Positions 32,459 to 43,047 of a stretch of 64,000 bases of DNA are shown one piece after another. This DNA comes from an uncultured Planctomycetota bacterium. GTDB lineage: Bacteria; Planctomycetota; Planctomycetia; Isosphaerales; Isosphaeraceae. The stretch lies in NCBI GenBank assembly GCA_963845755.1, contig CAWJTV010000022.1:96001-160000 (forward strand), read 5' to 3'. Numbering within the stretch: the stretch's first letter is position 1; each line of letters opens with the position of its first letter. The position numbers were made by a program, and so were the translations under genes. The notes under the pieces are model-generated. The model was not told the DNA's origin. It did no database searches and worked only from the letters and a program-made list of their open reading frames with translations.

Positions 32459-34129
32459 CTACCGCTCCTCGTTTCCCGGTTTTTCAAGAAGGAAGAATCG
32501 CCATTCACCAGGGACCAGCCACAGGCGATACGTCCGATCATCGAGCACGGCCGTGCCTGGCAGATGCGAGAAGGCCAAGGCGTATCGCCCGGTGATGTGC
32601 GGATGCCGGAAATGGTCGAACGGTAGCGTGAGGCCCCGGGGCGGGCCAATCGGCCCGTCGGAGGCGTCGGCGACGGGCCCCGGTGCGTACCAGCCGTCCC
32701 ACTCGTATCCGCCTTCGATGTCTTCAGCCGATATCCCCCGCGCAAGCGCGCGTCGCCCTAATCCCCAGCGGGCCGAGTTCCACGCGAGCCAATCGTGCAT
32801 CAAGCCGACCGAGCAGACCGCGAAGAGTGCGAGCGCGCCCAGGCCGGTCCGCCATCGAAGACGGAGCGGACCACCCGCGGCCAAGACCAGGGTTCCGGGC
32901 ATCAGGACGATGAGGTAGCGGTCGAACAAGTACGGCGAGACGAGCAGGATCGGGACGTGCAACGCCGTGTACAGGAAAAAGGGGTGAGCGAGCGCCCCTT
33001 TGCCGATCCGATCGATCGCGCGGACCGCGAGCGCCGCCACGCCGATGCAACCCGCCACGGTGAGGAATCCCTGCGCGAAGGTCCCCATCATCAAGGGCCG
33101 CTCGCCGACCAGGTAAATGCCGTTGTCGAGCGTCCCCCAGCATGTCACGGTATTGGGAAGATACGGGAAAAGCCCGCCGCGGTAGGCGTGCGGCGGTGCC
33201 AAGTCTCCCGCACCCACCCAGAGGATCGCCACAAGATCCAGCACCACGACGAAGGCCGCGAGAAACCGCTTCTCCAACACAATCCCCGGGCGTAGTGCCA
33301 GCACGGGCAGTGCCGACAATCCCAGGTAAACGCTACCTCGGAGGCATCGCACGAAAATGCGCATCCCGGATGGAACCACGGGGGCCAGTGGCACGGAGTC
33401 CGGCCGCGCCGTAAACCACGAATGGACGACGACCCCGGCAATCAGCGGCAGCCCGACGCCGACGAGCCAGGCCGGGCGCCACCGCAGCGTCCGCTCCCGC
33501 GCCAGGAGGATGCCGGCCACGACCGGGATGACGACCGCATTCTGGCGCGTGGTGGTCGCCAGAGTGGCGAAGAACGCTCCTGCCAAGAGAACGCGAAGCC
33601 GCCCGCCTCTGAGCGCGCGCGTGTAGAAGGCCAGCGCGATCAGCGAAAGGGAGAGCGCCGGCACGTCTGACATGAAGGTGCCGGACATTACGAAGACGAT
33701 TGGGTTCAACGCGATGGCCGCCGCCGTAAAGCTGGCCTCGGGAGGGCAAAGCCCCACCTCTCGCCGCAGGAGATCGTAGAACGCGAGAACACCGAGCAGG
33801 GACAGACCGACCGTCAACAGGCGGAGGGCCGTGTTGGATTCACCCACGATCCGGACGATAGGATAGGCCAGGAGCCACTGGCCGAGCAGCGGCATCGAAG
33901 GCTGCCGGTAGTAGTGAATGCCCTCGCCCCGCGCCAGGGCGAAGATGCCTTTGCTATATGCCCAGTCGTCGTTCAGGGGGAAATCCTGCCGATCGGCGGG
34001 GATCGCGGTCAGGATGAGGCCCCAAAGCATGACGATGGACCCGATCGGCAGCAGGGCGAAAACCCATTCTCCGCGTAATCGAGAGAGTCGTCCATCGGAG
34101 GCTCGAGTCGCGGTGGTCGTGAGCGTCAT
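32459..34129 (-). CDS. GT-C (ArnT/PMT-like) multi-pass glycosyltransferase
   Basis: FPLNDDWAY, TFMSDVP, RQ and FDRYL motifs, with many TM helices. Confidence 0.8.
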   Translation of the reverse strand: MTLTTTATRASDGRLSRLRGEWVFALLPIGSIVMLWGLILTAIPADRQDFPLNDDWAYSKGIFALARGEGIHYYRQPSMPLLGQWLLAYPIVRIVGESNTALRLLTVGLSLLGVLAFYDLLRREVGLCPPEASFTAAAIALNPIVFVMSGTFMSDVPALSLSLIALAFYTRALRGGRLRVLLAGAFFATLATTTRQNAVVIPVVAGILLARERTLRWRPAWLVGVGLPLIAGVVVHSWFTARPDSVPLAPVVPSGMRIFVRCLRGSVYLGLSALPVLALRPGIVLEKRFLAAFVVVLDLVAILWVGAGDLAPPHAYRGGLFPYLPNTVTCWGTLDNGIYLVGERPLMMGTFAQGFLTVAGCIGVAALAVRAIDRIGKGALAHPFFLYTALHVPILLVSPYLFDRYLIVLMPGTLVLAAGGPLRLRWRTGLGALALFAVCSVGLMHDWLAWNSARWGLGRRALARGISAEDIEGGYEWDGWYAPGPVADASDGPIGPPRGLTLPFDHFRHPHITGRYALAFSHLPGTAVLDDRTYRLWLVPGEWRFFLLEKPGNEER

Positions 34130-34319
34130 GTGTGTCGGGTCATTGAGTAGGGTTGACCAGGAATCGATCGCCACGGCAAGTCACTCGCGGCCGGATCGCC
34201 TTGCGAGATTTCGGGTGGGCGAGGCTCCGTCCGAGCTGGACCGGAATAGGGCTCGCCAGGACGTTCGACCTCCCGGAATCGTGCGAAGGCATGGATTATC
34301 CCGGCAAGGGATACTCACA

Positions 34320-34442: not shown

Positions 34443-34529
34443 ATTGACCTTCTTTCCTATCAGGGTGATAGAATAGGATGAACGCGCGCAGCGACGACAG
34501 TGCTGGATCATTGGGCCCGGGAGGCAGGC

Positions 34530-35366
34530 ATGAGCGCACTCCGCGAACCATTTCCCGTGGGCCAGATCCTTCGTCCAAGTGCCGATTCCGGCCGCGAGGT
34601 CAGAAACAAAGTCATCGCGGTTCTTCCGGCCTACAATGCCGAGAAGACACTGGCCGCGACGCTGGCTGAGGTCCCCGCTGGTTCGGTCGATGAGATCATG
34701 CTTGTCGATGATTGCAGCACCGACCGCACCGTGGAGTTGGCCCGCGCGATGGGGTTGACGGTGGTCGTTCACCCGGAGAATCGCGGCTACGGCGGCAATC
34801 AGAAGACCTGTTATGGACTGGCCCTGAGTCATGGGGCCGACATCATCGTCATGATTCACCCGGACTACCAGTACGACAGCCGGGTCGTTCCCCACGCCGT
34901 GGGCCTGGTTGAGCTCGACATCTGTGATGTCGTGCTCGGCAGCCGGATTCGTTCGCGCCGGGAGGCCATGGCCGGAGGGATGCCTCTGTACAAGTATGTC
35001 GGCAACCGCGTCTTGACGGTCGTCGAGAACATCGCGCTGGGGCAGAATCTCGGTGACTTCCATAGCGGTTTCCGGGTTTATCGCCGCGCGGTGCTGGAAC
35101 GGATTCCCTTCGAGCGCAACTCCGACGATTTCGTCTTCGACACACAACTCCTGGTCCAGGCCGTGCGCTTTGGTTTCCGGCTGGGCGATCTCCCGGTGCC
35201 GGTGCGGTACTTTACCGAGGCAAGCAGCATCAATTTCCAGAGGAGCGTGAGATACGGCTTCGGCACGCTCGGCACCGTGGCGGCTTACTGGATGGACCGC
35301 CTGTCGATTCGGCGCTCACCTCTCTTTTCCGAGAAACATGGAGGCGATTCAGCCCAATGCCCCTGA
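34530..35366 (+). CDS. GT2 polyprenol-phosphate glycosyltransferase (DPM1/ArnC-like)
   Basis: [35 protein letters not shown] and HSGFRVY motifs. Confidence 0.9.
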
Positions 35367-35545: not shown

Positions 35546-36630
35546 CTAATACGCATCGCTGCCGACGACCTCGCCGCCGTTGCGGGTTGACAGCGCCTGC
35601 CAGACGCCCGACGGCGGCAGGTTCACCCAGGCCCCCTGACCGTTCTGTGAAGCCCCGGCCGGGTTGCCCGAGATCGTGTTGAATGGCCAGGTCTGAATCG
35701 AGTCCTTGATGAACCGCACCGAGCCGTCGCCCATCAGCACGTTGAGCCCACCTGGATGCATGCTGGAGGCCGAATTCGTCCAGGCCATCATCGAGGCGCC
35801 GGCGACCTTGTCGCAGGCATTGGGCGGGTAAAGCGTCGTGATCAGCGTGTCGCCCCAGTTGCCGGTGATGTACCAGCCGTGCTGGGCCGCATATCGCGGG
35901 TTGAGCGCATTCAATTCCTGGAGGATCGTCGTCGCCTTCTCGGCCATGAAGATCGTGTTGCTCAGCCCGTCGGTCACCGAAGCCAGGCGGATAGGCGACA
36001 CGTCGTTGAAGACCCCATTGCACTGCGCAATCAACGGACCCGGCACGACGCAATTATTGCTCGGCAGGGGCTGAGCCAGCACCGGCAGCGAGCCGATCAT
36101 GCCGGCATAGCTCGTGAAGACCATGAACGCCGCGTCGGGCACGCCGTACCTGGTCAGGGCGCCGGGATTGAGGCTCGCGGCGAGCCCGCCGTAGGGTCGC
36201 TGGGACAGGCGAAGGCCGCGATGGCGATCGCGTGGATCGTGCTGTTCTCACCGCCGATGATCGCCAGATCCTGGTTGATCGCGTTGTAGAGCGTCGCCTG
36301 CTCCATGAATCCCAGCGCGAAAACCTCCAGGCTCTTGTCGACTATCGTTGACGTGCAGGGCGGCCTCGCGCCGGCATAGCGAGGATCGTATGACTTCATC
36401 CGGCCCGGCGGTAGCGAGCCGAAGGCGTCGTGGTAATTCTGCAGGGCCAGTCCGAACTGCTTGAGGTTGTTCGAGCACTGCGCGCGGCGGGCCGATTCCC
36501 GGGCGGACTGGACGGCGGGAAGGAAGAGTGCGATCAGAAGCGAGATGATCGAGATTGAGACGAGGAGCTCGATGAGGGTGAAACCAACGGCTAAGTCTCC
36601 CAAGCGATAGTGTCGCATCTGCCACCCCAT
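35546..36630 (-). CDS. DUF1559 prepilin-type protein with H-X9-DG C-terminal motif (frameshift ~36170)
   Basis: [44 protein letters not shown] and [16 protein letters not shown] motifs. Confidence 0.92.
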
Positions 36631-36898
36631 GAGGGCAAGACGGGAGCCGAGCGAAAAAATCGGCCCGAGTGACGTCACCGAACGACCGGCGTAGGCGCAC
36701 AGCAAGTCGGCATCGGAGCACTACTGTCCCGTCCGCTCCCGCTATTGGCTGAAAGCCTCAGCTCGGTTCTTGATGCCGACTGAATTGCCCTGACTCGCCT
36801 TACAAGCAGCGAGATCGGCTCCGATGATGCATGCGAGACGCCGGAGGTGCCGAATCGAGCCTTCAGGCACTCCATTGGTCGCTGTGCGTTATCCCGGG

Positions 36899-37984
36899 CT
36901 AATTCTCTCGAGTCCCTTCAGGGCGGCGTTCTGCCGCACCCGGGACCGATTCGGGTGGCCTCCGGCGAAGGGTCCCGGCATAATACTTGAGAACAATCGC
37001 GACGAGCAGCGACGCGACGGCCGCCCCGAGCAACAAGACAACGGTACGGTTCGCGAACCGAGACCGGGACGGCCCCGGCTGTCCCAGCTCTGGTAGTCCG
37101 AAAGCCGCCAACGTGAACTCGCGATCCGGCGGGTCCACGAGTCGCAGATCCTCGAAAGTAAAATCATGTACATATACCGGTGCCCTTGAACGCCGATCCA
37201 TCAACTCGACGACGACACGTTTGGGTACTGGAAAGCCATCCTGAATATCCCCGTACTCCACCTGCCCTCGTATGGCCGCCTTGCTGTAGCCAAGTTCGTA
37301 TTCCCGGAGAACCCACTTCTTTTCAGGCGCGACCAAGATCCAGCCATCATACTCCGGGCTCGGTCTCCCCTTCGCGATCTTCCAGATCCCCTCCTTGAGG
37401 CGGACCTCCAATTTCAAGCAATTCTCGCCGTCCTGGCGGACTTCGGAAATGCGCTGAATGGAGAAGCGGTCGCTGGAAATGATGCGGCTCAATGGCTGAT
37501 AGAACGCGGAGAGCGAGAATGGCGCATCGAGATACTCGTAAAGCCAACCATCAACTTGAACCGTCGATTGCTGTGGAGGTTCTCCGTTTACATTCTTATC
37601 GAACGACCTAATGACATATTGTGCATCACCATCCTTCTTTACCAGAGCAAAGGAATAATCCTTGTTAAAACAGTATACCATGTCCTGGCCTGCCGGTCTC
37701 GTTCGGCTCGACGTTACCCTCGCCCAATAAGGTCTCCTTGTCGCAAATGTGAACTTACCCACCATCTCCTGTTGACGCGGTTTTCCGATTTGGTGTTTAA
37801 GAGAGTAGTTGACGGACCCTACGGCCCTGGAGAAATGTTCCTCGAGAGCCTTGAGGGCATCGGGAAACTCTTTCAGGATCCTCGACCTGAGAACGGCTTC
37901 GTCGTCTCGCGCACATGCCAGGGTTGACCAAAGGAAAAGAAAGCCGGAAATCGAGGCGCCGATCATCGCACGTCGGACTCTCAT
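36899..37984 (-). CDS. Exported hypothetical protein with C-terminal membrane anchor
   Basis: Signal peptide, beta-rich body, EFTLAAFGLPE then TM helix and basic tail. Visibly lower GC than the flanks. Confidence 0.8.
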   Translation of the reverse strand: MRVRRAMIGASISGFLFLWSTLACARDDEAVLRSRILKEFPDALKALEEHFSRAVGSVNYSLKHQIGKPRQQEMVGKFTFATRRPYWARVTSSRTRPAGQDMVYCFNKDYSFALVKKDGDAQYVIRSFDKNVNGEPPQQSTVQVDGWLYEYLDAPFSLSAFYQPLSRIISSDRFSIQRISEVRQDGENCLKLEVRLKEGIWKIAKGRPSPEYDGWILVAPEKKWVLREYELGYSKAAIRGQVEYGDIQDGFPVPKRVVVELMDRRSRAPVYVHDFTFEDLRLVDPPDREFTLAAFGLPELGQPGPSRSRFANRTVVLLLGAAVASLLVAIVLKYYAGTLRRRPPESVPGAAERRPEGTREN

Positions 37985-38248
37985 AGTTCCCCCTTAGCGC
38001 CTGAATTGCTATCGGCCGATAGGGTAGGGCGCTGGCGTAGGCCACCGTGACAGGAAACAAACCCAAAGACCGAAGAAAGACATCCAATCAAGGCGCGCCG
38101 AGCGATACACTGTCTACTGCCGGGAACGGGGACAGGTTTGGCGGCCGCTCGCTTCCCATCCGGATACGGGCCCTAACCCAATTGACCGAAGGGTGGTGAC
38201 CCGGGATTATTGAGTGGCTGGCACAGGCTCCAAGCATGCAGGGACAGA

Positions 38249-39104
38249 GAACGTGCTGAGAAAGTTATGATTTCTTCACCAGACGGCGGGCCATCAGATG
38301 GATCATCGCCAGCTTGACCCACGCCTCGCCGCTGTCGGTCGTAGCCTCGTAGTCCTTGCTCAGTCGGCGACACCGACCGAGCCAAGCGATCGTCCGCTCC
38401 ACCACCCAGCGCCGCTTGATGACCTTGAACCCCGGCTGCGTCCGCTTGACGACCTCCAGCAGGATCGGCCGAGCCGGCCGAAAGCGGACCACCCAGTCAG
38501 CCATCCGCCGGTACATACCATCGGCCCGCACTAGCCTCAGCCGACTTAAACGCCCCCCGGATCGCCTCGAAGACCAGCTTCAGCCGGTGATAGTCCTGGA
38601 TGTCGGCCGCAATGCACGACCACCACGAGGATCAGCCCGAGCGTATCGACGAGCAGGTGCCGCTTGCGGCCCGTGACCCCCTTACCGCTGTCGTAGCCCC
38701 TCGGCCCCTCTTTTCGGTCGTCTCGACCGACTGGCTGTCGATGATCGCCGCCGACGGTTGCCGGGGGCGGCCCTAGGCCTGCCGCAGGTCGCCCCGCAGT
38801 TCGTCGTGCAGCCGGTCGAGTGTGCTGTCCTCCTTCCAGGTGCGGAAGTACCAGCACACGCTGTCCCAGGGCGGGAAGTCGTGCGGCAAGGCGCGCCACT
38901 GGCAGCCCGTGCGGTTGATGTACAGCAAGGCGTTGACGATCTCACGCCGCTGGTACCTGGCGAGGCGGCTGCCCGGTCTGGGGGCCGGGATGAATCGCTC
39001 AACCTGGGCCCAGTGCTCGTCGGTCAGGTCGCTGTGATTAGGGTTGTCGTGTGTCCATGCCCGGTCATCACCGCAAGTACCGGGCCGGCTTTCTCAACAG
39101 GCTC
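38249..39104 (-). mobile_element. IS5-family (IS1031-like) insertion sequence, degenerate
   Basis: Imperfect 16-bp TIRs at 38249-38264 and 39089-39104. Transposase motifs TGCQWRALPHDFPPW, IIDSQSV, GRKRHLLVDTLG and RWVVERTIAW. Confidence 0.9.
38265..39058 (-). pseudogene. IS5-family transposase pseudogene
   Basis: In-frame TAG (~38773) plus frameshifts. Confidence 0.85.
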
Positions 39105-39109
39105 TGAGA

Positions 39110-39317
39110 CGAATGGCACTCGGATTTTTGCAAAGCATTACAGAGTAACGGCTTTCGCCGATTGTCACCGCTTTTGCTCGGAGTCGCCCTCGGGACCGGT
39201 CCCCACAAATCCCGAGGATTCACAGCATGGTCCAACGCGAGGACCATGAATGAAAACGGCTATCGACGACATAACCGATTTGTGTACAATGGGTTATAGA
39301 AATCCGAGTGCCATTCG
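39110..39317. mobile_element. 208-bp MITE with 18-bp perfect TIRs and 9-bp target duplication
   Basis: CGAATGGCACTCGGATTT / AAATCCGAGTGCCATTCG, flanked on both sides by GCTCTGAGA. Confidence 0.9.
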
Positions 39318-39382
39318 GCTCTGAGACGAATTTCCGCCTCCGTTCGAGAATCTCGGTCCGCCGTCAGCGCCCTGGGCGCGGT

Positions 39383-39658
39383 TCAGTCACAGTCCTCTTC
39401 ACAAACATAACCAGTATAACCCGTATCGTGACACAAACAACTGGCATCACAGTTACAGCAGCACACGTCGTTGCAGTTACACCACCCACAGGGCTCCCCT
39501 TCACAATCTTCACAGTACTCCGTGGTACCGCAATAATTTGCGGTAAGAGGTTCGTCGGCCAAGGCAGCCGTGCTGCCCCAGGAGAGCAGGCCCAAGAGCA
39601 TCAAGACGATGAAGGACGCTGCGAAGAAGCTCGAGGCGATGGAAAGCACGCGAGACAT
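39383..39658 (-). CDS. Small secreted cysteine-rich acidic peptide (91 aa)
   Basis: RBS AGGAGG, a 34-aa signal ending ALA, and a 57-aa mature part with 14 Cys. Confidence 0.8.
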   Translation of the reverse strand: MSRVLSIASSFFAASFIVLMLLGLLSWGSTAALADEPLTANYCGTTEYCEDCEGEPCGWCNCNDVCCCNCDASCLCHDTGYTGYVCEEDCD

Positions 39659-39838
39659 GTTCAGTACCTCCTGCGAAGTTCGAGTACAACCGCCAAAGAT
39701 ACGCCTCGCCCGAAGCCGCACGCACGACGATCGGGACGAAAACCTAACCACCACTGAGACGGTTCCGGGCTCCAAAGATCGCACTAAGGCCGGCCTCCTT
39801 CCGGGATGGGCGAGTAGGAGGGGGCCCACTCGCCATGG

Positions 39839-40294
39839 TCAATGCTGCCCCCTGCCTTCAAAGACGCGGCCTTGGATTCGTACCGACACCGTTGGTTCGC
39901 CGGGACAATCCAAGTACAAGTTGAGAACGGTACTGAACTCATGATCACCGGCCCGGGCCGCCTTCAGCATAAGCTGAACCTCACGACTCGAGTGGGGTGG
40001 AACGGTGACTGGAAGGCCCGCGGGCCGGATGCAGCCCCATTTCGTACAAAACCGCTCGGCCCCCAGAACGCGGATGGGGCGGGACGACCTGTTCGATAAG
40101 TTGTACGAGACTGGGGTGACCGAGTCGGCCTTAATATCACCCAGCGATCTCTGCGGGGGGTCGATCTGCAGCAAGTCCCCCAGGGTCGTGGACGTACGAC
40201 GCTCTCCCCCGCTCCACGCCAAGCAAGCAAGGGCAAAGAGGGCGACTGAAATCACCCAGGAGCAGACTATTCCGAAGCGCACGAGTCGTACCAT
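39839..40294 (-). CDS. DUF1573-like Ig-fold protein
   Basis: N-terminal TM, then SLGD..YNLSNRSSRPIRVLG..CTKWGC..VPP and C-terminal VRIQGRV. Confidence 0.7.
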   Translation of the reverse strand: MVRLVRFGIVCSWVISVALFALACLAWSGGERRTSTTLGDLLQIDPPQRSLGDIKADSVTPVSYNLSNRSSRPIRVLGAERFCTKWGCIRPAGLPVTVPPHSSREVQLMLKAARAGDHEFSTVLNLYLDCPGEPTVSVRIQGRVFEGRGQH

Positions 40295-40302
40295 AGTCTA
40301 CC

Positions 40303-40806
40303 CTACTCCGGAACCGCTGGCTTGGCTGTTGAAGGCCCAGTGCGCTCGACTACGCGTCCGCTGATCTTGAGGTCCAACCGTTGTTGGCCTTCTCGATCGG
40401 TAATCAGGCTAACGCGCTCGGCAATCTGGCCCGGCCGAGGCTTCGGGCGGAGGCCTATTCGAAGCCGGAAGACCCCACGGGGGGGAAGGACTACGGGGAG
40501 CTGGTCCAACACGAGGCACGTGCAGGATGACTTCGCACCGACGATCTCAACTGCTTGATTTGACATATTGGTAAGCTTGAAGAAGACCGCATGCTGATCG
40601 CCCACACTTACGACGCCGACCGACCGGGTATAAGCGTCCGCGATGAGTCGATCCCCACCGAGATAAGCCACGGCGGATCCAAAGGACCCGAAAAAGTACA
40701 AGGCGATGGCCGCGATGGCAAGGAGGCCGATATTGGTGATGATCACGGTCAGAGCCATCCACGACAGGGGCCTTTTCCTGGTCGCGGTCGATTCTGTAGC
40801 GATCAC
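40303..40806 (-). CDS. DUF1573 Ig-fold protein
   Basis: TM, then FKLTNMSNQAVEIVGAKSSCTC...LPP...ITD...LKISGRV. Confidence 0.8.
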   Translation of the reverse strand: MIATESTATRKRPLSWMALTVIITNIGLLAIAAIALYFFGSFGSAVAYLGGDRLIADAYTRSVGVVSVGDQHAVFFKLTNMSNQAVEIVGAKSSCTCLVLDQLPVVLPPRGVFRLRIGLRPKPRPGQIAERVSLITDREGQQRLDLKISGRVVERTGPSTAKPAVPE

Positions 40807-41355
40807 GGTGCACCTCGCTCTAGATCGGGGACAGGGTCAGCGGGTAATCTATCGGCAGGCTCCCCGGGTTGGACTCGCACCTCTATCTGGGGCGCGTCCG
40901 AAAAACGATTCCTCCGGGTGGGTCGCGACCAATCACGTCGATTGACAGGCCACCTCGGAAATCGGGATCGTCCGTGGGGTCGAATTTCACGGTCAGATCG
41001 GCGGCCTGTCCCGGTCCGATGTTAGTTGACTGCTCCGCCACACTTAGGCAGGGACAACTCGTCTCGACCCTCGCCACCATCACGGGATGCGAGCCTGAGT
41101 TCCGCAGGGTGAGTTTCGCAATCGCAGACCGACCCGGGTCCAAGGTCCCGAGCGAGATCGGATCAGGGCTGATCTCGAGCGGAAAATGCTGACCCGTCGT
41201 GCTTGCTAACTTCGAATGGGGGGGGGGGGGGTATGCTTCGCTCTTGGTGAGCCGAGGAGCGAGAGGGCCGACACGGTGAGCATGAGGGCTGGCGGGAATG
41301 TGGCCCAGACGAGCACGCGATTAGAGAAAGACCTTTCGCTTGATGCACTCATCAT
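40803..41355 (-). CDS. DUF1573 Ig-fold protein (frameshifts at the C14 tract and ~40890)
   Basis: TM, then ISLGTL..LTLRNSGSHPVMVARVETSCPCL..IGPGQ. The reconstructed end overlaps the next start (GTGA). Confidence 0.7.
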
Positions 41356-41447
41356 GGGAACCCTCGTTGGGGGCGGAGGGAACCTGAATGACCCTGGATC
41401 GTATAGGCGTCGGGGCGGGCTGTCAAGGCCCTTCTTTCCAAAAAACT

Positions 41448-41621: not shown

Positions 41622-43047
41622 ATGCCCTGGGATCCGTTCGGCGCATGGCCCAACGAACGTCGATGGATCTGGCTAACCATCGCCGGCTGGGTTCTTCTGT
41701 TGCGCGGGCCGGCGTTCGTCGAGAACCTCGAGGCGAAATCGCCGCAAGAGCTACTCCCGGACTTCTTTCAGGAATACGCCTCGGCTCGCAATGCGCTCGA
41801 AGGATTGCCGATCTATGGCGATCATCACGAGAGCGTGCGGCGCGTATCTCGGCGACCAGCTCAACGATCGACGATCGCATGTCGTCGTCAACGCCCACCC
41901 ACCGACCTCGATCCTGCTCGCCCTCCCTCTGGCCAGGCTCGACTTCGGCCATGCCTTCCTGACTTGGAACCTTGTTTCCCTCGCAGCCCTTGCGGCCAGC
42001 CTCTGGATCGTACAACGACAGCTCAAGATTCCCTTTTCGGCCTGGTCGTTTGCCCCTCTCCTGGCCCTCCTCCTTCTCTGCTTTCCCCCGTGGGAGCAAT
42101 GCCGGCTGGGGCAGCTCACCCTCATTCTCCTGCTGCTGATCACCGGCGCGTGGGCGGCGGAAAGGTCGGGGTGGCCGCGGCTGGCTGGAATGCTTCTCGG
42201 CGCAGCGACCTGCATCAAGCTGTTCGCGGGCTTCCTCTTCATCTATTACGCGCTGCCGGGTCGCTGGAAGGTCGTTGTTTCGGGCCTGCTGACCATCGCG
42301 GGCCTGACGGCGCTGACGGCCGCGATCCTCGGAGTCGAGGCATATCGGAGCTACTTCCTCACCGTCCTGCCTGAGATCCAGTGGTTCCGGGTCGGCTGGA
42401 ACAACAACTCGCTCTGGGGGTTCTGGAGTCGGTTGTTCGATCCCGCGCCCGAGCACGGTCGGGACCGGTCGCTCTCCGAGCCGCTGATTTACAGCCCGAT
42501 CTTGGCCAGGGTCCTGTCGCTGGTCTCTTCGGCCGTGATTGTCGGCATTCTGGCCTGGGCGGTGCGCCGCGACGAGAAGAGGCTCTCGGCGCGTGAATCC
42601 AGAGTACCCCCTCACCCGGCCTTCGGCCGACCTCTCCCCGAGGGGCGAGGTGAAGATCTCAGAGCCTCCCATGGTCTGCAAAAAGATCTCACGTTCGCCT
42701 TGGCGGTCACGGCGATGCTGTTGGTCTCGCCGATCTGCTGGGAGCATTACCTGCTGCTCATGCTCGCTCCGCTGGCGATTATCTGGGTGAATCTGCCCGC
42801 CTCACGGTTCGCGCGAACGCTGTTCTTGACGATCGTGGCCGCGTTCTGGCTGGGGTATCCCGTGACCTGGACGGCCTTCGGCCTCAACGGGCGAATGGCC
42901 ACGCCGGTCGACTCTCTGGGAATCCTCTCGTACCAATTCTATGCCCTGCTGACGTTCTTTGCCCTCACGCTGATGATCTCGCGGCGTGGAAACGATCCGG
43001 GGCCCTCGCCTTCAGCAACGACCCGAGTCCACTCCACTGCGCCTTGA
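41622..43047 (+). CDS. Glycosyltransferase family 87 (DUF2029) membrane protein (frameshift ~41840)
   Basis: DFFQEYASAR, NAHPP, GQ, IKLF, NNSLWG and SPICWEHY motifs. Confidence 0.85.

Follow-up and report, generated by a model that had tools for sequence, protein, structure and literature searches.

Among the closest described parallels to the genes reported here are two systems in which a Sec-exported cargo is encoded near a large pilin-type protein, namely TcpB-TcpF of the toxin-coregulated pilus (TCP) made by Vibrio cholerae and CofB-CofJ of colonization factor antigen III (CFA/III) of enterotoxigenic Escherichia coli (ETEC). In the parts of the literature covered, the export signal at the N-terminus of TcpF binds the minor pilin TcpB (PMC10120004) and modular pilins serve as adaptors (PMC8179133). 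A different parallel is offered by the methylamine dehydrogenase small subunit, an exported protein with six disulfides matured by the CXC/CXXC helpers MauE and MauD; the portion covered of one report describes MauE as replacing DsbB as oxidase via its CXC motif (bioRxiv 10.64898/2026.03.05.709764). Here we describe a gene cassette that shares features with each, from a 64,000-nucleotide stretch of DNA of an uncultured bacterium of the planctomycete family Isosphaeraceae (assembly GCA_963845755.1, contig CAWJTV010000022.1, positions 96,001 to 160,000), referred to below as the window.

An earlier note, made from the window's sequence, had proposed six same-direction genes on the minus strand at 35546..41355, and all six were found (Table 1). 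The block is a real, recurring and conserved cassette of four families, comprising one to four DUF1573 Ig proteins, a Cys-rich precursor peptide, an anchored exported protein and a DUF1559 pilin-like protein. As in the Vibrio and ETEC systems, as far as the sources covered describe them, a cargo apparently exported by Sec is encoded near a large pilin-type protein, and a short N-terminal stretch is the most conserved part of the mature cargo. Unlike them, the cassette contains no pilus machinery, its DUF1559 globular domain has no solved-structure match at E<=0.001, its putative LolA-fold and Ig partners are without counterpart, and its cargo is a putative disulfide mini-protein of 30-100 amino acids. 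MauE and thioredoxin-fold genes are present in some cassette loci, once fused to DUF1573; unlike in the MauE/MauD system, such genes are absent from the window and from most loci, no dehydrogenase genes are present and the cargo is hypervariable. No description of the cassette was found in the literature searched, whose scope excluded most subscription journals and supplementary gene tables, nor is it described in the parts covered of PMC10434189, PMC12419801 and PMC3482391. New here are the controlled counts, the link between membrane anchor and cassette, the dedicated DUF1559 clade, the turnover of loops on a fixed Cys frame and the evidence against strict cognate immunity.

Recurrence was assessed from the anchored protein; among representatives at 50% identity it has 1083 relatives with E<=0.001. 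From the profile matches listed, 100 were taken with their flanks, strong matches on longer contigs being preferred, and exclusion of nine loci having less than 3 kb upstream left 91 for the counts. A peptide was scored where a signal-bearing product with six or more Cys was encoded on the same strand no more than 3 kb upstream of the anchored gene. This filter found one in 53 of the 91 loci, a figure raised to 60 by checking by hand; it had missed seven true peptides, one of them frameshifted, as well as the copy on contig C41 of this genome. Adjacency of peptide and anchored gene is far above chance: controls yielded 1/91 on the opposite strand, 0/81 at 5-8 kb upstream and 2/95 at 3-7 kb downstream, with a genome-wide background of 0.004 per 3 kb. 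A DUF1573 gene lies upstream in 68/91 loci, 58 of these 68 having the peptide, and a DUF1559 gene downstream in 55/91. All four parts occur together in 47 of the 91 loci, representing 25 of 45 genomes, and the order DUF1573, peptide, anchored gene is kept in 51 of 51. Loci from other families place the peptide before the anchored gene in five cases of seven. Peptide and anchored gene are duplicated as a pair in L073, L129 and L130, while fusions join the anchored domain to DUF1573 in L132 and MauE to DUF1573 in L134. The possibility raised in the earlier note that homologous DUF1573 arrays lack adjacent Cys-rich peptides is therefore not borne out, since the loci keep peptide, DUF1573 and DUF1559 in a fixed order.

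The 118-sequence profile of the anchored protein matches 78 of 121 genomes of the family, and in a phylum-wide search with five candidates scored per genome at least 10 of 401 were positive, a figure that does not show rarity beyond the family. The patchy presence within the family, together with the mosaic nature of gene 1, suggests exchange, so that the earlier proposal of a horizontally exchanged cassette retains some force. Low GC does not add to it: the low GC of the peptide and anchored genes recurs family-wide, in 46/49 loci, and is therefore no sign of recent import; as proof of recent transfer it was rejected. Nor is it peculiar to the anchored gene, as had been supposed when this was described as a lower-GC exported protein with a C-terminal anchor; the anchor stands, and GC at third codon positions (GC3) is equally low, at 0.62-0.70, in genes 2 and 3, the peptide and the anchored gene, compared with 0.82-0.86 for DUF1559 and a genome median of 0.82.

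Several individual copies deserve mention. Three tandem cassettes (L031, L032 and L081; G046:C20:230615-264599) each have their own GT87 gene and a different peptide, and compared with the window gene 1 is mosaic. The window's own genome contains further copies, L140 (G000:C20:518148-522197, +) and L139 (G000:C41:651466-656520, -), the latter with an insertion sequence (IS) within the anchored gene and a TPR-sulfotransferase after DUF1559. It also has a sister cassette, L138 (G000:C44:96019-100045, +), consisting of DUF1559, an exported anchored protein, a peptide, a C39 peptidase and DUF1573, with a GT87 gene ~5.5 kb upstream; the peptide has 12 Cys and a double-glycine site, and the peptidase a C-terminal helix. 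When profiles of the anchored family and the L138 exported protein were compared, the probability was 0.8% and E was 0.07, at which homology is not shown. Finally, L141 (G000:C11:77579-80569, +) combines an extracytoplasmic function (ECF) sigma factor, DUF1559, a 163-residue exported protein with few Cys and DUF1573, and looks like the same chassis with a different cargo.

Conotoxin precursors combine a conserved signal and leader with a fixed Cys framework and hypervariable loops of raised nonsynonymous (dN) and synonymous (dS) change, and the cassette peptides resemble them. The window peptide has a 33-residue signal-like leader with a predicted cleavage site between ALA and DEPL, all 14 Cys following it; the Cys count of the earlier note is thus correct, its length of 57 residues being replaced by 58 for the mature part. 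The peptide has no Pfam or NCBIfam match, and its best score against a protein atlas, 0.78, is uninformative. Across the family the leaders are Sec-signal-like and end mostly in (A/L/S/V)xA, while the cores extend over 31-98 residues from the first Cys, contain 6-14 Cys in many spacings and often terminate in CxC-x(4-15)-C. Between the window and the same-genus locus L031 the leader is 90% identical and the core 46% (31% without the shared Cys), with Cys codons kept. Counted over only 45-57 codons, dN and dS are 0.55 and 0.73 for the core and 0.05 and 0.05 for the leader, compared with a dS of 0.11 for gene 3; the raised synonymous change in the core thus points to loop replacement or local hypermutation rather than selection alone. 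The earlier note had left open whether the peptide is disulfide-rich or metal-binding. Its sequence features favour the former, since Cys number is even in 48/58 cores (two of the odd ones being mis-cut leaders), His makes up <1% of core residues and MauE and TlpA genes are found as neighbours.

A leader-core precursor, here with a leader resembling a Sec signal peptide, and optional tailoring enzymes likewise recall clusters for peptides that ribosomes synthesise and that are then modified post-translationally (RiPPs). The differences are that these peptides are bacterial, with no sequence relation shown, and that no tailoring enzyme, leader protease or ABC exporter is obligatory in the cassette, any accessory gene being found in 27/63 loci and none in more than 11. 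Some peptides stand out by their setting. At L066 (G055:C285) a vitamin K-dependent gamma-carboxylase-like (HTTM/VKGC) gene lies between two peptide copies that share a leader, and a TPR-sulfotransferase comes after. A subtype (L112, L113, L120, L122, L126, L069 and L139) has a shorter leader, a DQP start, a DUF1559 of one subclade and a TPR-sulfotransferase immediately downstream. Another exported family of ~160 residues with 10 Cys lies between DUF1559 genes (G000:C20:302926, C43:114705 and L050 +3581).

Neither Pfam nor NCBIfam has a match for the anchored protein. Its model (predicted local distance difference test, pLDDT, 90) comprises a domain at around residues 30-298, a C-terminal membrane helix and a cytoplasmic tail of 24 residues. 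The predicted domain appears to have a LolA/LolB-type fold, an open β half-barrel with a helical lid, resembling the LolA/LolB/DUF1329 superfamily over ~205 residues at Z 12.1-13.5. The best matches are 4z48 (Z 13.5), 9tpm (13.3) and 3bk5 (12.8), followed by two at 12.7 and 12.1, with 9tp6 and 3buu among the top five; superposition gives root mean square deviations of ~5 Å over 202-212 residues at 8-13% identity. None of the 118 aligned members matches a LolA/LolB Pfam family, and there was no PDB sequence match under E 0.1. In the protein atlas the nearest named clusters, TP_0789/MucB at 0.81-0.82, offer a lead only. Unlike LolA and LolB, the anchored protein evolves fast, bears a C-terminal membrane helix and is set in a peptide cassette with no lipobox cargo. 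The helix goes with the cassette: it is kept in 54/58 peptide-linked proteins and 13/15 from loci with only DUF1573 or DUF1559, compared with 2/15 orphans. Stand-alone, anchor-less LolA-fold homologues were seen at L037, L038, L043, L064, L085, L095, L103, L114 and L118, some of them close to the window's protein, and tandem LolA-fold pairs at L118 and L132.

According to the part covered of PMC8567305, DUF1559-type genes are expanded, with at least 41 in each genome, and signal-peptide genes often flank them; this genome has ~123-129, a number that points to a planctomycete host. The DUF1559 gene of the window is of the prepilin type, with a class III signal cleaved between G and FTLIE, an SBP_bac_10 domain and the H-X9-DG motif, and with PF07596 matched on both pieces of the frameshifted gene. 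DUF1559 is the stable part of the cassette (median identity 48%, dN/dS 0.07-0.11). In a quick tree 43 of 45 cassette-linked sequences fall in one clade, with 99 support by the Shimodaira-Hasegawa approximate likelihood ratio test (SH-aLRT) and excluding 67 other intact paralogues of this genome, which indicates, as a matter of sequence phylogeny, a cassette-specific, dedicated DUF1559 clade. An intact relative was modelled with pLDDT 92; Foldseek matched the pilin helix alone, and the lack of any match at E<=0.001 is not evidence of a new fold. Elsewhere the genome contains secretin, prepilin peptidase and PilC/GspF genes, and no secretin, ATPase or platform family recurs across 103 loci.

The earlier note had described three membrane-anchored Ig proteins, each with a Cys pair. 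This is so of genes 2 and 3, which are intact and have an N-terminal hydrophobic helix; the frame of gene 1 is broken. The Ig part of gene 1 (43 bits) and gene 2 (32) exceed the PF07610 cut-off of 26.1, below which gene 3 falls (17 bits); a local DUF1573 profile matches it at E 2e-27 and we term it DUF1573-like. Gene 2 also weakly matches the OS_HP2 selenoprotein family and PCuAC (E 0.04), and DUF1573 is described as including selenocysteine (UGC) members in the parts covered of PMC9312934 and PMC13188914. CxC is present in 15/15 third-upstream and 36/44 second-upstream DUF1573 copies, the nearest copies having mixed spacings, with the two Cys separated by a gap of 4 in 21/75 of the nearest upstream domains. 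The Cys pairs may plausibly have a redox role.

Among the 63 peptide loci, the accessory genes observed were TPR-sulfotransferase (11), GT87 (10), TlpA-like (7), GT2 (6), PMT_2-type (~5), MauE (3) and the carboxylase-like gene at L066 (1). This genome gives expected rates of 0.001-0.04 per 15 kb, ~0.005 for GT87, and of all these genes 15 orphan loci contained only one TlpA-like gene, with no MauE, GT87 or TPR-sulfotransferase. At least one listed tailoring or redox gene occurs within the fetched 15 kb in the 27 loci mentioned; with none above 11/63, a conserved core enzyme was rejected. The loci share no recurrent metal transporter or regulator. This genome has no MauE above cut-off, and two of its six GT87 sites lie beside such cassettes. 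Because GT87 is enriched at peptide loci relative to both expectation and orphans, the divergent GT87 gene of the window is likely part of the cassette unit as an accessory.

Taken together these observations suggest that the cassette may serve in the periplasmic folding of a secreted, disulfide-rich mini-protein, which would then pass to a type IV filament to be exported or displayed, a tentative reading that we would stop a little short of calling probable. The peptide would be exported by Sec and cut after AxA and before D(E/Q/D)P, and its core disulfides would then be paired with help from the tethered Ig Cys pairs, fed by MauE and TlpA-type oxidoreductases where present. The LolA-fold protein might capture the peptide through a shared scaffold or short post-leader motif, not through the variable loops, and load it on a DUF1559 tip pilin, much as TcpF and CofJ are placed on TcpB and CofB. 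Optional tailoring by GT-C enzymes, sulfotransferases or other neighbours could follow, with the pilin an equally possible substrate. The payload would likely target something external and diversifying, be it a competitor, a predator, a phage or a kin cell. This scheme is built on observed features, namely the gene order, the conserved leader with its variable core, the anchor-cassette link, the dedicated DUF1559 clade and the presence of secretin, prepilin peptidase and platform genes in the genome; further support comes from the paired duplications, the fusions linking parts, the mostly even Cys numbers and the accessory genes at peptide loci.

A number of points weigh against it. We infer all interactions and steps from predicted folds and conservation. 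The DEP, DQP or DDP start is found in just 23/58 peptides and is therefore weak as an export signal; CxC is common in DUF1573 proteins outside cassettes (for example on C26, C36 and C25) and therefore possibly a plain structural disulfide; and redox accessories are rare, with MauE at three of 63 loci and a TlpA background of 0.04 per 15 kb. Variation is high in the anchored protein as well, whose median identity across loci is 18%, and it tracks DUF1559 poorly (Mantel r 0.22 over 43 loci and 0.02 over 26). Thirteen loci have DUF1559 without a detected peptide partner set, and orphan loci exist. The loci, being from related genomes, are not independent, and the three at G046:C20 overlap. Lastly, the window's copy has an IS between peptide and anchored gene and three frameshifts within ~3.3 kb, where the background rate is 0.2 per kb or more.

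Alternative readings turn largely on how peptide and anchored protein are related. In polymorphic toxin-immunity modules, as described in the part of the literature covered, a variable secreted gene is likewise followed by a variable partner, pairs duplicate and orphan partners occur. On this reading the peptide would act as an antibacterial mini-protein, with the anchored protein as cognate periplasmic immunity factor and the orphans as spare immunity genes. The invariant order of the two genes (51/51), their duplication as a pair, their standing as the most variable genes between conserved flanks, their low GC3 and the 15 orphan copies, 13 lacking the anchor, all fit this; the cassette, however, has no toxin domain or trafficking N-terminus, most cores are acidic or close to neutral, with net charges of -14 to +3, and the portion covered of a polymorphic-toxin survey (PMC3482391) mentions neither LolA nor pilins. 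Moreover, pair co-variation was not detected: peptide core and anchored protein correlate at r 0.12 (p 0.08; 26 loci, near-saturated sequences), falling to -0.01 without Cys, and among the closest copies identity is 74-79% for the anchored protein where it is 41-46% for the cores. We consider cognate immunity unlikely. The same lack of detected co-variation bears on the idea of a kin-specific signal or tag recognised by the anchored protein as receptor. A peptide that varies and looks like a ligand, next to a periplasmic membrane protein that also varies, would suit such signalling, as would the Ser/Thr kinases in 19 loci, but the cytoplasmic tail is a mere 24 residues and there is no conserved partner kinase, making it a distinctly improbable reading. 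Together with the carrier-type predicted fold, these results weaken the earlier suggestion that the anchored protein is a receptor or immunity factor.

LolA/LolB-type folds carry lipids or lipoproteins, and the cassette might instead be an envelope glyco-lipid or pilin-modification unit, in which the LolA-fold protein would carry a lipid that the GT-C/GT2 neighbours make or decorate, the pilin would be the product that is modified and the peptide a small structural or tip subunit. The fold matches, the GT87 genes in 10/63 loci, duplicated with the cassette in G046, and the GT2 and PMT_2 genes flanking the window's cassette agree with this. In most peptide loci, nevertheless, no glycosyltransferase lies in the 15 kb fetched, and hypervariable loops on a fixed Cys frame are left unexplained; we hold this reading to be quite unlikely. 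An exported metallothionein-like peptide that binds or detoxifies metal, with the Cys-pair Ig proteins as metallochaperones, would account for 14 Cys with CCC and CxC runs among many acidic residues, and for the weak PCuAC match of gene 2. Against this, the Cys number is mostly even (48/58), His is scarce (<1%), the peptide is exported among disulfide-forming neighbours, fast loop turnover would be unexpected for a fixed ion and no metal transporter or regulator is recurrent, so that metal binding seems to us decidedly improbable as well.

Table 1. Features of the cassette and its surroundings (positions in the window)
Feature	Coordinates	Strand	Basis or remark
PMT_2-type GT-C gene downstream of cassette	32459..34174	-	possible accessory
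GT2 gene downstream of cassette	34500..35366	+	possible accessory
DUF1559 prepilin-type protein (GFTLIE, H-X9-DG)	35546..36621	-	PF07963, PF07596, TIGR04294, tree
Anchored exported protein, 361 aa, predicted LolA/LolB-like domain	36899..37984	-	model, structure matches
IS5-family element, broken transposase	38250..39104	-	DUF4096 and DDE_Tnp_1 matches, frames
Miniature inverted-repeat element, 206 bp	39100..39327		one 78% copy on C34
Cys-rich precursor, 91 aa, acidic hypervariable core	39383..39658	-	sequence, leader/Cys-framework family, orthologues
Gene 3, DUF1573-like Ig protein, membrane-anchored, CTKWGC (C-x4-C), 151 aa	39839..40294	-	local DUF1573 profile
Gene 2, DUF1573 Ig protein, membrane-anchored, SCTC, 167 aa	40303..40806	-	PF07610 32 bits
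Gene 1, DUF1573 Ig protein, membrane-anchored, SCPC	40803..41355	-	frames, PF07610 43 bits, same-genus alignment
Candidate sigma-70-like promoter 5' of gene 1	41398..41426	-	TTGACA-17-TACGAT, consensus match only
Divergent GT87 (GT-C) glycosyltransferase, frameshift near 5' end	41622..43047	+	PF09594 96 bits

Within the window the stop codon of gene 1 overlaps the start of gene 2. The candidate promoter agrees with the consensus at 10/12 positions, in a region that holds four such sites where 1.5 are expected. Gene 1 is split by two frameshifts, one in a run of 14 C at 41218-41231 and another near 40890, and DUF1559 by a single one near 36175; the reading frames of genes 2 and 3, the peptide and the anchored gene are intact. 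In five copies from the genus the C run measures 10, 10, 11, 11 and 15 letters, and in a copy from another genus 10, the frame being kept only at 10; it may be a long-read error or a phase-variation switch. The genome assembly (14.3 Mb, 49 contigs, 88% complete) shows frame breaks in 33 of 156 conserved genes tested; those of the cassette may be assembly errors or decay, and the copy may have been intact in life or decaying. In the comparison with sequencing runs the best share of words was 0.17. A relative's contigs from an RNA library (~87-96% alike) span genes 1-3, the leader of the peptide and the anchored gene, with an extra base at 40891, and another run has one at 36175; such contigs show neither transcription nor this strain's own state. 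The frameshift sites lie outside the coverage of a near-identical DNA sequencing run.

The statement in the earlier note that mobile elements interrupt and flank the block holds for the interruption, the gap between peptide and anchored gene being occupied by a broken IS5-family element and the 206-bp element. Flanking mobile elements were rejected, the neighbours being glycosyltransferase genes (GT87 and GT2). The IS5-family transposase is disrupted by a stop and frameshifts, and both elements are missing from the two closest same-genus copies, L031 and L032 being continuous across the site. The miniature element adjoins the end of the IS5 element; its inverted ends are 17 bp long, its direct repeat is 11 bp, and a relative's contig skips 39100-39318.

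Disulfide-rich mini-proteins are known mostly from animals and plants, and the 60 precursors identified here constitute a natural library of bacterial ones, with 6-14 Cys in differing frameworks. Few planctomycete families are expanded as much as DUF1559, for which no role is known; the association of a cassette clade with one class of cargo makes the idea of an adaptor pilin testable, and the complete high-quality genomes that have the cassette (e.g. G059, G098 and G014) make knock-out and peptidomics tests look feasible. It is possible, though we put it forward with considerable doubt, that such cassettes form a conotoxin-like periplasmic platform, in which libraries of disulfide-locked mini-proteins would evolve through exchange of loops on fixed Cys frames and be served by a new class of tethered CxC Ig-fold oxidoreductases or chaperones, a LolA-fold protein turned peptide carrier, extracytoplasmic tailoring and cassette-specific DUF1559 adaptors for delivery. 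Were this so, it would provide the first function for DUF1573 and for part of the 100-plus DUF1559 genes in each genome.

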